DNA from: Pedobacter sp.
GTDB lineage: Bacteria > Bacteroidota > Bacteroidia > Sphingobacteriales > Sphingobacteriaceae
NCBI GenBank assembly: GCA_004295885.1
Contig: SEDG01000001.1
Coordinates: 7,942 to 71,941 of the forward strand
Length of the DNA: 64,000 nt
Direction: 5' to 3'
The position numbers were made by a program, and so were the translations under genes. This document shows, one piece after another, positions 59,357-64,000 of this stretch. The first letter of the stretch is position 1, and each line of letters begins with the position of its first letter. The notes below the pieces were generated by a model. The model was given only the letters and a program-made list of their open reading frames with translations, had not been told where the DNA came from and made no database searches.

Positions 59357-60187
59357 ATGATTAGAGTCAGATATTTGCTATGCCTGCTGGGGTTATTGTT
59401 TTTTGTCCACGAGGTTTCTGGACAGGTTATCCCTCCCCAAAGCGCTATCGGTATGGAAACTGCTGATGCTCAAGGCAGAGTTGCAATAGCGCTCACCCTA
59501 GATGAAATGCCAGGCCAAAAGTTTGTGCTAGAAATACCAGAGTTATTTACCTCTACGAGTGGCAAGGGCGAACACTTCAATTACAGCAAACAAGTTTGGA
59601 ATTACCGTCCCGATGGCGCCGATATGAAGCTCAGCGATGAAAAATATACATATGAAATCCATCTTGATAAGGTGATGTCAAAAAATGCGGTTGGATTGAA
59701 ATGGAAGATTACATTTACCAATAACAGTGAAGAAACCCTAAAGGACCTAATTTCATTTAACTGCTGGACAATGAACTCCGCACCGCTATTTAAGGATGTG
59801 GAGATGAAAAGAACCTATGTGCTTGATAGCGCAAGCAATAAGATTACACTGGCCTCTGTTCGCAAGACTCAGGGTTCGGGAAGAAGGAACATGCAATATT
59901 ATCCGGTTCCCAAGAGCAAAGTGGATCTTTCCGATAGTCCCTGGATTAGGAATTGGAACGTAATCTCTACTCAGGGTCTTGCCGGGAAGTGCATCTCGAT
60001 TGTTTCAACAGACTCCAAATGGCTTTTCGAAAACAAGGTAGATGGCAATGTTGCCTTTTTCTTCAATAATTTCGAGGATGACCATGGTTGTGTCCATGCC
60101 TCCCCTCTTCTTGCCAAAAAACTCCTACCAGGTAAGACAGCAAGTGCAAGCGGGATATTTAAGTTTACGAGGATAAAACAAAATTAA
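59357..60187 (+). CDS. Secreted hypothetical protein, paralog 3 of the unknown family
   Basis: Signal peptide; SFNC, APLFKD, GRRNMQYY and FFNN..HGCVHASP blocks. Confidence 0.8.
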   Translation: MIRVRYLLCLLGLLFFVHEVSGQVIPPQSAIGMETADAQGRVAIALTLDEMPGQKFVLEIPELFTSTSGKGEHFNYSKQVWNYRPDGADMKLSDEKYTYEIHLDKVMSKNAVGLKWKITFTNNSEETLKDLISFNCWTMNSAPLFKDVEMKRTYVLDSASNKITLASVRKTQGSGRRNMQYYPVPKSKVDLSDSPWIRNWNVISTQGLAGKCISIVSTDSKWLFENKVDGNVAFFFNNFEDDHGCVHASPLLAKKLLPGKTASASGIFKFTRIKQN

Positions 60188-60192
60188 TTGCG

Positions 60193-61008
60193 ATGAACTC
60201 AGCCATATCAAAAGAACAAATCAATTTCTACCAGGATAATGGATATGTTGTTATAGAAGACTTTTTAAGTGCTGACGAACTGGAAAGATGGCGTAGTGCC
60301 CTAACAGTCGCCGTAAAGGAAAGAAATGGTCAAAAGATGCCCGGACAAGCTACTAAAATAGGTGAAGACGATGGGATAAATAAAGACGTTGAATACTTTA
60401 ACAGCGTGTTTGACCAGTTGTTGAACCTATGGCAAACCAATGATCAAATCAAGGAGCTTATGCTCGATAAGTCTATTGGCAAGATGGCAGCTGATTTGGC
60501 AGGTATGGATGGTATCAGGATTTGGCATGATCAAGCATTGATCAAAAGGCCTTGGGCTAATCCCACCGCTTGGCATCTGGATACTCCGTTTTGGTCGTTT
60601 TCGGATAGAAATGCCATCTCGATTTGGGTAGCGCTTGATGACGCAACGCTAGAAAACGGTTGTCTGTTCTTCATCCCAGGCTCTCATCTGACCACAGGTT
60701 TTCGCAACGTAGAACTCGGTAGGAATATGGCCGGGATATTTGAGGTGTACCCTGAATTTAAAAAATCTCGATCTGTGGCTGCACCCATGAAAGCTGGCAG
60801 TTGCTCATTTCACAATGGGCTCACGATCCATGGGGCGCACGCGAATATGACACCGGGTTTTAGGCGAGCAATGACTTGTGCCTATATGCCAGACGGGAAT
60901 GTTTTTAATGGGGTGAGGAATATACTTCCAGAAAGTTACCTTAACACTACTATGGTTGGAGATGTGTTGAACAGTGAAGAACAGAATCCCTTGATTTATT
61001 CCAAATAG
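60193..61008 (+). CDS. PhyH-family Fe(II)/2-oxoglutarate dioxygenase
   Basis: AWHLD...FHNGLTIH...RRA; WVALDDATLENGCL..IPGSH. Confidence 0.9.
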   Translation: MNSAISKEQINFYQDNGYVVIEDFLSADELERWRSALTVAVKERNGQKMPGQATKIGEDDGINKDVEYFNSVFDQLLNLWQTNDQIKELMLDKSIGKMAADLAGMDGIRIWHDQALIKRPWANPTAWHLDTPFWSFSDRNAISIWVALDDATLENGCLFFIPGSHLTTGFRNVELGRNMAGIFEVYPEFKKSRSVAAPMKAGSCSFHNGLTIHGAHANMTPGFRRAMTCAYMPDGNVFNGVRNILPESYLNTTMVGDVLNSEEQNPLIYSK

Positions 61009-61054
61009 TTTGATCACTAACGGTGTATTTTATCAGTTTTTTAATTATCGAAGC

Positions 61055-62071
61055 ATGAAGTATCAGATTATCGTTAACAAGGCCTCCAGCATTGCGAAAT
61101 ACGTGCAAATCGCAGAGGTTATCAAGAAGGACATAGAGTCGGGAAGATTGGAGAATGGCTCGAAATTACCCTCCATCAATGAATTCAGTAAAAGCCATAT
61201 CGTGGCGAGGGATACCGTCGAAAAAGCTTACAATAGCTTAAAACGTACAGGCTATATCAAAGGTGTTCCTGGCAAGGGTAATTTTGTGGACAAGGTGTAT
61301 CAGTCCCAGAAAACATTGAAAATCTTGATTATCCTTAACAAACTAAGTTCGTTCAAAAAGGAGGTTTATGAAGCATTCCTGGAGACTATGGGAAGTAGGG
61401 CAAAGGTTGACATGCAAATCCATCATTATAACGTGGCCTTCTTTAAGGATATTATTCATGAAACCGAGGGGGAATACCATTATTACGTCGTCATGCCCCA
61501 TTTCTCAGCGGATACTTCAGATCAAAGTTATCTTGAGGTGTTGAATTCTATTCAAAATGCTGGGCTAATAGTGCTGGATAAAAAGGTGCAATTGGCAAAT
61601 GAGGTCATCAACGTATATCAGGACTTTGAAAGGGATATCTTTGAAGCGCTTAGCGTTGAAAGGGAAATTCTGCAGAAGTACAGTGGCATTACCTTGATCT
61701 TCAATAAATTGACAAATCATCCGAAAGAGATCATTGAAGGGGTAAGGTCGTTTTGTGAGATGCAGGAGAAGAACTTCGACGTTATTGAAGATGCTAACAA
61801 GGTAATCCCGAAAAAAGGTACCGCCTACATTACATTAACAGATGATGAACTTGCCATGGTGCTTAAAAAGATCAAGGAAACCAAGCATAGATTGGGAAGG
61901 GATATCGGTATACTTTCGTTTAACGAAACGGTGTTGAAGGAATTACTGGGAATCACGGTGGTTAGTACTGATTTTTCTGCAATGGGCCGGATAGCTGCAG
62001 AAATGATCTTGGGGAAAAGTGTTCAAAGCATTAGGAACGAATTTCGTTTTATCAAGAGAAATTCCTTGTAG
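61055..62071 (+). CDS. GntR-family regulator (paralog of 34070..35101)
   Basis: KYVQI..LPSIN..ARDTVEKAY..GKG wHTH; GILSFNE..ITVVSTDF. ATG 61055 preferred over TTG 61010. Confidence 0.9.
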   Translation: MKYQIIVNKASSIAKYVQIAEVIKKDIESGRLENGSKLPSINEFSKSHIVARDTVEKAYNSLKRTGYIKGVPGKGNFVDKVYQSQKTLKILIILNKLSSFKKEVYEAFLETMGSRAKVDMQIHHYNVAFFKDIIHETEGEYHYYVVMPHFSADTSDQSYLEVLNSIQNAGLIVLDKKVQLANEVINVYQDFERDIFEALSVEREILQKYSGITLIFNKLTNHPKEIIEGVRSFCEMQEKNFDVIEDANKVIPKKGTAYITLTDDELAMVLKKIKETKHRLGRDIGILSFNETVLKELLGITVVSTDFSAMGRIAAEMILGKSVQSIRNEFRFIKRNSL

Positions 62072-62545
62072 TGTACGGGAATAGTGGCTGATTCTTTTAA
62101 AGCGAGATTAATTTATGTATTTAAAAGGCCTTCGGCGCTTCGTAGATCGGCTAGACGACTACGACTATCTAAGTTATTTGATGTTGGTCGTTAGGATTAC
62201 CTTACCAAGCAAGCCTTATTGGTAAATTGGAGGTTATTCCAAAAGGGCCGCATCTTATTATGTATTAGTTGAAGTTTTGGAAGTAAACAGAGCCATTTAC
62301 AGTGTCTCTTTAACCAAATTGTCAGCCTATATTGTTGGCAATTTCTTATTGGTAAATTATCTGAAATCCCACAGATTGAATGTTTTTGGGCGGAAAAAAT
62401 TTGAGAACTCGATAATTATTTTTAACTTTATCTTATAAGTAATTGCAACTAATTACAAGTTTAGAAATAAGTGAGTCATTCGGTGAGTTTTCGAATATTA
62501 CTATTTGTAAGACATTGATTTAAAGCTGTTTAGTAACTATAAGGT

Positions 62546-62562
62546 ATTCCCCTGCGGGCTAC
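62546..62562 (+). mobile_element. tRNA 3'-end fragment (tRNA-Glu-like), putative att site
   Basis: ATTCCCCTGCGGGCTAC resembles the T-arm/acceptor 3' end of Bacteroidetes tRNA-Glu as I recall it. No 5' tRNA half upstream; a terminator follows directly. Confidence 0.55.
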
Positions 62563-62563
62563 G

Positions 62564-62594
62564 AAGCCTTCAACGAAAGTTGGAGGCTTTTTTT
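62564..62594 (+). terminator. Rho-independent terminator
   Basis: AAGCCTTCAAC-GAAA-GTTGGAGGCTT stem (one G-U pair, GNRA loop) running into a T tract. Confidence 0.85.
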
Positions 62595-62678
62595 ATTAAT
62601 ATTTGCCTTGATATAAAAGTAGTGGATAAGTATCAACTTTACTATAAATGGGATTAGGTTCGCGGGTATAATCAAGCT

Positions 62679-63500
62679 TTAATTCTCAGATAAACTAATT
62701 TTGTTTCTAATCAGTCCATTAAAATGAGCGACTCTTTCGGCATATCTCCTAACTCCTAGATTTTCAAGGTTTTCTTGCATTTCCTTTTTTAAATGCAGCT
62801 GTCCGCGTCTAATAAATAAACCTGTTACTTCACAAGACCTTCTTCGGTAACAAATTTTCTTATGATTTAGATAGTAACCATTTTGTTTTATTATTTCGAG
62901 TATTTCAGGAATGTATTCTTTAAAATTCTTACTAGAGGAAAAAGCTAAGTCGTCTAAGTAAGCAGTAAATGTAATTTGCTTATTTTCACAATATGACGTT
63001 ATATTTTGAGCTGTTGTCGAAAATACAAGGTTCGCCAATGTTGCGGAAGTTGGCGCACCTTGAGGCAAGTGCCCATCAAAAGTCGTAAGTCTGGTAAGCA
63101 ATCGTGCTTCACTGCTGGAAAACCCTATCGATAGTAATGTTTGATGGACCTGAGCGTTTGTAATATTGGAAAAGTAATTTTTAAGGTCTACTGTTAAAAA
63201 GTAGGAGCTATTGATATGAACCACTGCATTCATAATATTGTTTTTTCCCTTTATACTTCCAAACATCACATCCGGCAATGGGATTTTTTGAAGTAGAATA
63301 TTTATTTCACGCTGTATCAATTTTAATTTTATATATGGTTCTTGAGTATAACGATACCTTAAAGTCCCATCGTTATTCTGTTGTGGTTTACCCCATTTTT
63401 TTTTCGCTCTTATTGTACTTTTATATAGCCCATATGATTTTCTTGTTAGGCGTTTAAGCAAGTTGTCTTCAACTGTCAAATTTAAAATGTTGCGAATCAT
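62679..63500 (-). CDS. Retron-type reverse transcriptase (273 aa)
   Basis: LKLIQ, region X NAVVH (NAxxH), DLKNYF, LPQGAPTS, catalytic YLDD and region Y VTG (CEVTGL). Confidence 0.9.
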   Translation of the reverse strand: MIRNILNLTVEDNLLKRLTRKSYGLYKSTIRAKKKWGKPQQNNDGTLRYRYTQEPYIKLKLIQREINILLQKIPLPDVMFGSIKGKNNIMNAVVHINSSYFLTVDLKNYFSNITNAQVHQTLLSIGFSSSEARLLTRLTTFDGHLPQGAPTSATLANLVFSTTAQNITSYCENKQITFTAYLDDLAFSSSKNFKEYIPEILEIIKQNGYYLNHKKICYRRRSCEVTGLFIRRGQLHLKKEMQENLENLGVRRYAERVAHFNGLIRNKISLSEN

Positions 63501-63515
63501 AATTTTCTAAAATGA

Positions 63516-63795
63516 AACCGGGTCTAGAGCTTAGGAATAATTAAAGACGCTAACTTAAGAGTACGTTTAGCGAACCTTTTTATGATTTGCATTTGTTGCA
63601 TCTTAAGCTTAAAGATTAGTATCTCAATTAACCATCGCTCGGTTCTTGATAAATTTTTGCAGTTCTTCACCAGAAGCTTTTTAAGATGCTTCCGTACCAC
63701 TTTCTTTTTTTTCATATTTATGGGATTTAGATTCCAGAGAATTTCTGGCCGCAAGAATATTTATCACCATGGCAAATCAAGAAAACGACCCGGTT
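63516..63795 (-). ncRNA. Putative retron msr-msd RNA bounded by a1/a2-like inverted repeats
   Basis: AACCGGGTC (63516-63524) and GACCCGGTT (63787-63795) form a perfect 9-bp IR. An unpaired G follows the 5' arm on the minus strand (63786). Internal stems are present, and the region lies directly upstream of the RT ATG. Confidence 0.7.
63524..63715 (-). CDS. 63-aa highly basic small protein embedded in the putative retron RNA (candidate effector)
   Basis: ATG at 63715 preceded by AT-rich TAAAT; 20 K/R vs 2 E; TAG stop overlaps the 3' IR arm by 1 nt. Confidence 0.5.
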   Translation of the reverse strand: MKKKKVVRKHLKKLLVKNCKNLSRTERWLIEILIFKLKMQQMQIIKRFAKRTLKLASLIIPKL

Positions 63796-63810
63796 ATAAG
63801 TCATTATTTT

Positions 63811-63833
63811 AGGTGCCTTGCCGCAAGGCACCT
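63811..63833. repeat. Perfect GC-rich hairpin AGGTGCCTTG-CCG-CAAGGCACCT
   Basis: 10-bp stem, 3-nt loop, 15 nt outside the 5' IR arm; no U tract on the minus strand. Confidence 0.8.
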
Positions 63834-63893
63834 TTCTGCTACGTGTTTAAAACACTTTAAAATGGATTTTTAGAAAGAGGTTTAAAGAACGTT

Positions 63894-63924
63894 CTAAGAT
63901 AAAAATTGTCCGTAAAACCTCAAA
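63894..63924 (-). promoter_or_regulatory. Bacteroidetes sigma-A-like promoter for the retron unit
   Basis: Minus strand: TTTG (63924-63921), 19 nt, TATCTTAG (63901-63894). One mismatch to TAnnTTTG, with canonical spacing. Confidence 0.5.
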
Positions 63925-64000
63925 ACCAATTGAAATAAAAACTTTAGAGATTTTTGAAAGGTATCATCGCTAATATGATTTTTTACATGATTTACGTATT

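Follow-up and report, generated by a model that had tools for sequence, protein, structure and literature searches.

How might a retron restrain a putative toxin encoded within its own structured RNA when the helix-turn-helix (HTH) gene found beside such toxins in related retrons is missing? The question is raised by a locus near the end of a 64,000-nt stretch of DNA from Pedobacter sp. (assembly GCA_004295885.1, contig SEDG01000001.1), which we call the window and whose positions serve as coordinates below. On its minus strand a promoter-like site is followed by a structured RNA region that encloses the gene of a small protein (SP), and then directly by the gene of a reverse transcriptase (RT). 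A first interpretation of this DNA, made from the letters without database searches (the sequence-only reading), took the arrangement for a minimal retron whose RT copies the SP message itself. Here we argue that the locus probably represents a working, expressed retron from a large Type VI sublineage that has no HTH gene, and that it would work along the lines deduced from Retron-Vpa2, the RT copying not the SP open reading frame (ORF) but a compact non-coding domain at the 5' end of the RNA.

The reverse transcriptase and the missing HTH gene

The RT matched Pfam RVT_1 (E 4.1e-17) and, among the PADLOC models, was matched best by RT_VI (E 3e-61, 205 bits), with RT_III-A next at 157 bits; the best 25 of its 52 PADLOC matches were retron RT models without exception. 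The general marks of a retron RT, NAxxH, VTG and a catalytic YxDD, are all present, and 28 relatives show no variation in the catalytic DD, in the H of NAxxH or in the TG of VTG. The match to RT_VI supports the view, held from the start, that the locus is a retron. Among the nearest proteins are those of Pedobacter, at 63-66% identity, along with others of Mucilaginibacter, of Chitinophagaceae and of numerous metagenomes from soil, rhizosphere and plants, and RT relatives at E <= 1e-30 occur in 13 of 400 sampled genomes of the same family. A maximum-likelihood tree places the RT in a 42-member clade (Shimodaira-Hasegawa-like approximate likelihood ratio test, SH-aLRT, 99), whose sequences come mainly from Sphingobacteriaceae, Chitinophagaceae and soil or plant metagenomes, while sister clades within the same family have the canonical gene order SP-HTH-RT. 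Its best model and this clustering with SP-HTH-RT loci together place the RT on the Type VI branch.

About 100 related loci were oriented, and a hidden Markov model (HMM) was built from the 94-aa Cro/C1 proteins of more distant family members. At RT identities of 41% or less nearly every locus has an SP gene (74-82 aa), an HTH gene (94-100 aa) and an RT gene (275-298 aa); at identities of 42% or more every locus has SP followed directly by a shorter RT, and in none does an HTH gene lie upstream of the RT. Searched in all six frames, 54 loci gave no match to the HTH model. Within the 42-RT clade, 34 loci lack the HTH gene, eight have too little upstream DNA to judge, and none carries it. A stray match in L019 belongs to a 199-aa HTH-cupin gene 2.5 kb upstream, which is not adjacent to the RT, and weak matches in L049 and L043 (E 1.7e-5 and 6e-4) lie downstream of the RT; all were treated as unrelated. 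The window's own assembly, 82% complete, holds no Type VI-like HTH protein (best match E 0.005), and the Cro/C1 protein that marks Type VI (cluster 2_1, 91-110 aa) was found neither in the cassette, the window and the 325 nt beyond it nor in the assembly.

No other recurrent gene family was found within 1.5 kb of 37 loci. Neighbours vary from locus to locus (Fic and Era; an AAA ATPase and the methionyl-tRNA synthetase MetRS; polysaccharide-utilisation genes), and nucleotide homology to the closest loci runs from about 63905 to 62731, that is, over promoter to RT only. In the window there is no third gene between promoter and RT and none downstream of the RT, where no ORF follows until a convergent GntR-like gene at 61010-62071. 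On the other side the contig continues for 325 nt past the window, and because these contain the start of a divergent oxidoreductase-like gene on the plus strand, which is not an HTH gene, no effector or HTH gene is hidden beyond 64000. The sequence-only reading had seen no separate effector and no HTH gene and had guessed at a distinct two-part Bacteroidetes variant; the absence of both genes stands, and the 34 judgeable loci of the 42-RT clade support such a variant.

Four further loci (L083, L084, L087, L097) are HTH-less yet fall inside the HTH-bearing part of the RT tree, and may represent independent losses; the SP of L084 is positively charged too, by rough count. In L100 and L101, which are divergent, HTH-bearing and on a long branch, the upstream ORF (66-69 aa, rich in Trp, Ser and Arg) is unrelated to the other SPs; it may be spurious or represent another SP cluster.

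The small protein

Judged from its homologs, the 63-aa ORF of the window is a real gene, homologous to the small proteins of canonical Type VI retrons but polycationic. The ORF, its ATG and its length are kept across the clade, with a ratio of nonsynonymous to synonymous substitution rates (dN/dS) of 0.14-0.55 among the five closest loci, which bears out the expectation that the frame would prove conserved. Synonymous divergence of the SP gene is lower than that of the RT gene in the same pairs of loci, which fits an extra constraint on the ORF at the RNA level. When the SPs of 37 HTH-less loci were aligned by hhalign with those of HTH-bearing loci, the match had 95.4% probability (E 1.7e-8, 41 columns) and centred on a common C-x-F-S-x-x-E-x-x-L-L core; the locus has in this upstream SP the small accessory protein of Type VI. 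Pfam and PADLOC returned no family match for it.

The two groups of SP differ in charge. For HTH-less loci the median net charge is +15 (range +9 to +22; +18 in the window), for HTH-bearing loci 0 (range -5 to +5), a shift that is essentially one evolutionary event and hence a correlation rather than a statistical test. An AlphaFold2 model of the SP has two helices, residues 2-17 and 24-59 (mean predicted local distance difference test score, pLDDT, 85.7), as against the three-helix bundle reported for Type VI small proteins. By analogy with the known systems, the SP is likely a toxin.

The hybrid RNA

The elements on which the argument about the RNA depends are listed here from 5' to 3' of the minus strand. 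Promoter-like pair, hairpin, repeat arms, leader, ORF and RT with its motifs were found exactly where they had first been placed.

63894..63924, minus strand: promoter-like site of the Bacteroidota type, TTTG (63924-63921), 19 nt, then TATCTTAG (63901-63894)
63843..63855, minus strand: hp1, a small 5' hairpin (GTGTT / AACAC) with a conserved AAAGTG flank, found clade-wide with varying stems
63811..63833, minus strand: hp2, a 23-nt hairpin with a 10-bp stem, carrying copy 1 of a direct repeat, CTTGCGGC, at its apex (63827-63820)
63805-63801, minus strand: AATGA, outer extension of the 5' arm
63787..63795, minus strand: 5' arm of the long-range inverted repeat, AACCGGGTC, followed by G at 63786
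63716..63786, minus strand: leader of 71 nt, with copy 2 of the direct repeat at 63755-63748 and a hairpin, hp3, at 63748-63734
63783-63776, minus strand: leader element TTCTTGAT, whose partner ATCAAGAA lies inside the ORF at 63650-63643
63524..63715, minus strand: SP gene, 63 aa, net charge +18, candidate toxic effector (ATG at 63715, TAG at 63526-63524)
63516..63524, minus strand: 3' arm of the inverted repeat, GACCCGGTT, overlapping the SP stop codon
63515-63511, minus strand: TCATT, outer extension of the 3' arm
62679..63500, minus strand: retron RT, 273 aa, after a 15-nt gap from the 3' arm, with NAVVH, YLDD and VTG
62598..63960, no strand assigned: variable retron cassette in its probable limits, 1363 bp

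Across the compared loci the inverted repeat that brackets SP is the most robust RNA element. In the window it was equalled by one of 200 dinucleotide shuffles between the two search zones, and the 386-nt RNA folds better than all 100 of its shuffles (z = -3.07). The repeat, hp2 and the ORF all recur in homologous loci. Across the clade 79-96 nt separate the start of the 5' arm from the SP ATG, and 6-34 nt remain between the end of the 3' arm and the start of the RT; of 31 loci, 24 have a repeat better than 95% of shuffles. There are at least eight different arm sequences, each with a matching partner (AACCGGGTC/GACCCGGTT, ACCGGATC/GATCCGGT, AACCTGGGTCT/AGACTCAGGTT, AACCAGGGTT/AACCCTGGTT, AAACTAGGAGTC/GACTCCTAGTTT and CCAAGGTT/AACCTTGG among them). 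RNAalifold, applied to a MAFFT alignment of 18 sequences, kept all eight pairs of the repeat, three of them with compensatory changes; it recovered this helix only, and the other helices considered below were judged by per-locus folds and helix searches, which are less formal. The outward extension AATGA:TCATT lies in conserved columns and is the second-best repeat in L030, L036 and L037. Since in several relatives the SP frame runs through the 3' arm (..DSRPGS..), the arm is kept for pairing and not for its codons. The expectation that repeat and following G would be conserved together was borne out for the repeat, which covaries at a fixed position, but not for the G, which is T, A or absent in four of the 18 aligned relatives.

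The upstream hairpin is tied to the leader by a direct repeat of 6-14 nt, one copy at the apex of hp2 and the other just 5' of hp3. The longest word common to the two regions coincides with precisely these sites in 26 of 29 loci, and while the word differs from locus to locus (CTTGCGGC, TTGCGGC, TTACGGC, TGTGGC, CTACGG, TTGCGTC, TGTGTGGC, CTTGCGGCGGAAAT), both copies change in step. The stems of hp2 covary as well (GGTGCCTTG/CAAGGCACC, GGCTGCCTTG/CAAGGCAGCC, TGCTGAGGTG/CACCTCAGCA, CGCTGCCCC/GGGGCAGCG), as do those of hp3. Such co-variation of the two copies is what an interaction between an antisense DNA and the leader would predict; other explanations would be a protein that reads both copies, or strand-swapping of the RNA with the other strand of hp2.

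In many members a second, CAUGGUA-like leader element pairs with the ACCAUG start region, so that the start codon is sequestered. The minimum-free-energy fold in addition contains the leader:ORF helix TTCTTGAT:ATCAAGAA, the ORF side of which lies in the most conserved part of that frame and which shows a compensatory change in the L028 group.

In sister subclades the extreme 5' end pairs with the first leader element in a further helix of 8-13 bp, which encloses about 110-125 nt with hp1, hp2 and the 5' arm of the inverted repeat. This 5'-domain helix covaries (TCTATTACCA/TGGTAATGGA, ATTCATTACTA/TAGTAATGGGT, CCAACTCA/TGAGTTGG, GCAACCCA/TGGGTTGT), and a G follows its 5' strand in most loci with a clear helix. 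Because it crosses the bracketing inverted repeat, the two would form a pseudoknot or alternative folds.

HTH-bearing Bacteroidota loci share much of this design. There too SP is enclosed by an inverted repeat, with some 90 nt from the 5' arm to the ATG and with the 3' arm placed in the stretch that separates SP from HTH; a repeat carried by the upstream hairpin recurs in the leader beside a small hairpin, the words co-varying. The compact leader is, by this likeness, a trait of the Bacteroidota lineage and not special to the window. We note that three HTH-bearing loci (L010, L014, L018) have a GCTGTA-like element about 107-131 nt upstream of the arm and a TACAGC-like one 43-45 nt after it; this pairing may be an analogous 5'-domain helix, in which case their 5' domain would be larger than that of the HTH-less clade.

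An SP gene inside an inverted-repeat-closed transcript, direct repeats and abundant RNA (below) are the features of the hybrid RNA of Type VI. With RT, SP and hybrid RNA all of the Type VI kind and the HTH protein lacking, we file the locus as a variant of Type VI and not as a standard member.

Expression and limits of the cassette

The locus is transcribed in situ. In a metatranscriptome (X2) from the phyllosphere study to which the probable source sample also belongs, 92% of the sampled words are present, and the RNA contigs of X2 over the 5' part of the locus have depths of 3727 (63734-63882), 6950 (63704-63763) and 3046 (63675-63732), followed by a single 1688-nt contig over 62017-63704 with a mean depth of 319. 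At least the first ~200 nt of the RNA thus stand 10- to 20-fold above the average of the rest. The RNA contigs stop sharply at 63882, 12 nt downstream of the promoter-like -7 box; from 63883 to 64000 X2 has no RNA, while the DNA depth in run X1 is flat at 75, from which we conclude that the abundant RNA begins within a few bases of 63882. Nothing from a further RNA run, X8, mapped, and that run carries no evidence. A sigma-70 promoter scan gave nothing relevant, as expected for Bacteroidota, an Rfam scan of 61500-64000 gave no family match, and a tRNA scan of 60000-64000 gave no tRNA.

As to the limits of the cassette, one X1 DNA contig joins 62597 to 63961 through 67 other letters, at a depth of 44.9 compared with 74.8 for the retron-bearing form. 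It suggests a co-occurring strain without the 1363-bp cassette, a weak hint because the shorter side of the contig has only 30 letters. Homology to a genome of the same genus (G444) resumes at about 63973; as an empty site this genome was rejected, since its right flank matches from there and its left neighbour is unrelated, leaving no clean empty site.

Several observations concern the flanks. At 62546-62597 lies a tRNA-like 3' fragment, then a strong terminator hairpin on the plus strand (62563-62590), and a low-depth DNA contig of X1 has a different sequence just before 62546, ending in ...GGTTCG, which resembles an intact tRNA T-arm of another strain. In the Pedobacter relatives L002, L019, L020 and L006 the retron adjoins ORFs that resemble tRNA-gene read-through. 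The ~470 nt between the GntR-like gene and the tRNA-like fragment (62072-62545) have no convincing ORF and share an RNA contig with the RT; 62392-62575 also occurs in a wastewater metagenome contig. The divergent neighbour starts at 64034 (L001 3135-3426, plus strand) with a twin-arginine-like signal (..SRRLFLKQALLASAAIAAP..), after which comes a Rossmann-type motif of the sort typical of Gfo/Idh/MocA oxidoreductases, and the contig ends inside the gene.

Discussion

Our consideration of how the locus may work starts from Retron-Vpa2. There msr-msd and SP coding sequence are parts of a single abundant hybrid RNA (hyRNA), on which the translation of SP is repressed; multicopy single-stranded DNA (msDNA) of 63 to 86 nt is made from the 5' non-coding stem-loop domain, accumulates on phage triggers and derepresses SP translation, also in trans; a stem-loop in a 23-nt 5' extension of the msDNA is essential, and 7-nt direct repeats stand in the msd loop and in the riboregulator loop (Zhang et al., 10.1101/2025.10.22.683967). 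Given the co-varying direct repeats, the upstream hairpin hp2, and not the ORF, would be the counterpart of the Vpa2 msd loop.

Let us assume that this correspondence holds. One promoter would then drive the hybrid RNA and, after it, the RT gene. In the uninfected cell the folded RNA would keep SP untranslated, as in the homologous Vpa2, while the RT might copy the compact 5' non-coding domain, with hp1, hp2 and the region of the inverted-repeat arm, into a short single-stranded DNA. Phage infection would let this DNA accumulate and anneal to two sites, the repeat in the leader and the inverted repeat's 5' arm, opening the fold in cis or in trans, upon which SP would be made and the cell arrested. 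A lineage without the HTH protein must control SP through the RNA fold and the turnover of the DNA, or through the RT itself, and candidates for the restraint are repression by RNA only, neutralisation by the RT, and sequestration of the polycationic SP on nucleic acid. The template segment, the priming, the toxicity of SP and the anti-phage function are in this scheme carried over by analogy.

A number of points weigh against this scheme and deserve attention. Inactivation of the HTH gene is toxic in Vpa2 (10.1101/2025.10.22.683967), and in Retron-Sen3 the HTH protein is the antitoxin (10.64898/2026.04.27.721009). None of the six Type VI retrons in a published census gave detectable msDNA in E. 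coli. The window's own subclade has only a weak 5'-domain helix (3+3 bp, not significant), with no G after it. The RNA depths come from assembled contigs and do not give strand, exact ends or the level of the SP ORF; since a contig depth is a mean, an SP ORF at ~3000 together with a rare RT message would give the same average. Finally, the RT tree is a quick search with a midpoint root and no Type IV or V outgroup.

Among the alternatives, control after translation survives best, though we consider it unlikely. SP would be made constitutively and neutralised by the RT, by the hyRNA or by msDNA bound through its polycationic helices, and interference by the phage would set it free. Constitutive SP with a protein antitoxin does exist within Type VI, in Sen3, and the coincidence of HTH loss with a gain of some 15 positive charges by SP would fit a nucleic-acid-bound state, as the great abundance of the 5' RNA would fit post-translational control. 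The sequestration of the start codon in a conserved leader helix in many members, however, and the retention and co-variation of repeats of the Vpa2 type point to control of translation.

The sequence-only reading itself had proposed that the inverted repeat represents the a1/a2 repeats of a canonical retron, with G63786 as branch point, so that copying would start at the SP stop codon and yield RT-DNA antisense to the ORF, and RT plus RNase H would destroy or remodel the message. This we hold to be decidedly improbable, even though the geometry is that of canonical retrons, with the 5' arm followed by a G and the template beside the 3' arm, and the repeat is the best conserved helix. The inconstant G makes a poor branch point, and the repeat around SP in Sen3 is a second pairing (IR1-IR2), distinct from the terminal repeats of the non-coding RNA. 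A separate helix followed by a G closes the 5' domain in the sister subclades. In favour of the proposal, only ~80 nt separate arm and ATG, here as in the HTH-bearing Bacteroidota relatives, so that the ORF fills most of the enclosed space. The constraint on synonymous sites of SP also fits an antisense template; the Vpa2 msDNA, on the other hand, maps to the non-coding 5' stem-loop and not to the SP ORF, and in the present clade it is hp2, outside the inverted repeat, that the co-varying repeats mark and tie to the leader. What endures of the proposal is that a small ORF lies inside an inverted-repeat-closed structured RNA upstream of the RT, so that one RNA would serve both as SP message and as source of the template; the likely template within it is the 5' non-coding domain. 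We would give slightly less credence again to the claim that the inverted-repeat-closed toxin mRNA is itself the RT template and that RNase H or the DNA, antisense to the effector gene, directly gates toxin synthesis; if true, it would make the locus a self-contained two-gene switch with no protein regulator. That the locus is a decaying remnant, a Type VI retron past its HTH loss, heading for inactivation and without current function, would fit the published need for the HTH gene in viability or defence, but is very improbable in view of an HTH-less state common to a deep 42-RT clade down to 42% identity, invariant catalytic residues, purifying selection on both genes, covarying RNA helices and strong transcription in situ.

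Irrespective of these details, a template RNA that doubles as toxin mRNA is already known from the hyRNA of Retron-Vpa2, published in 2025. What is new here is a lineage that lacks HTH and has a polycationic SP and co-varying repeats; it is described in neither of the two Type VI preprints, and a text search of the literature, which did not take in the Type VI catalogue itself, found no paper on it. The studies of Vpa2 and Sen3 disagree on how the toxin is restrained, by translational repression that msDNA relieves or by a post-translational HTH antitoxin, and in both the HTH protein is indispensable. The present lineage, natural, widespread, expressed and still in possession of hybrid RNA and repeats, offers a ready test of whether control by RNA and msDNA alone suffices. 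As for compensation of the HTH loss, the one correlated change is the gain of positive charge by SP. At ~1.36 kb the cassette is among the smallest self-contained retron cassettes, which is of practical interest for retron engineering in Bacteroidota.

Comparison with known systems

Type VI retrons are defined by a clade-3 RT and a Cro/C1 HTH protein, with small three-helix auxiliary proteins (Mestre et al. 2020). About 22% of 158 catalogued Type VI entries lack an HTH gene, and one lineage, cl2760, is mostly of Bacteroidetes (10.64898/2026.04.27.721009). The canonical Bacteroidota loci with the order SP-HTH-RT, which probably belong to cl2760, a lineage that includes Retron-Bfr1, are of the same family as the locus of the window and share with it the homologous SP, the distance of the 5' arm from the ATG and the repeat design; they differ in the 94-100-aa HTH protein encoded after the 3' arm, a near-neutral SP of 74-82 aa and a longer RT. 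Other retrons, of the same RT clade in Mestre et al. 2020, encode their effector separately, as a two-transmembrane (2-TM) or a cold-shock-domain protein, and have abundant msDNA as antitoxin and no toxin gene inside the non-coding RNA.

In Retron-Sen3 the msd candidate contains, in its 3' part, an element IR1 whose pairing partner IR2 comes just behind the SP stop codon, and in the lineage of Sen3, cl2075, the SP coding sequence is under RNA structural constraint (10.64898/2026.04.27.721009). The repeat that brackets SP in the window corresponds to this IR1-IR2 pairing: in Sen3/cl2075 (Garcia-Rodriguez et al.) too a long-range pairing flanks SP and a short conserved stem-loop stands near a 5' repeat. 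Sen3, of a proteobacterial lineage, is distinguished by a non-coding RNA of ~280 nt with a 166-nt SL3, an HTH antitoxin that binds the RT, and constitutive single-stranded DNA.

Closest in plan is Retron-Vpa2 of Vibrio parahaemolyticus, likewise of Type VI. Its HTH gene, between SP and RT and toxic when mutated, has no counterpart in the window; its hyRNA of ~470 nt has a long msd stem-loop, whereas the RNA of the window, ~370 nt from 5' end to 3' arm, has small hairpins only; and its SP is not polycationic. Common to both are the clade-3 RT, an SP gene inside a hybrid RNA whose 3' end pairs back to its 5' part, direct repeats in a template-side hairpin loop and in the leader, a sequestered start region and abundant RNA. 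On this plan, hp2 with its apex repeat, a 23-nt stem-loop, and the twin repeat in the leader beside hp3 map onto their places in Vpa2.

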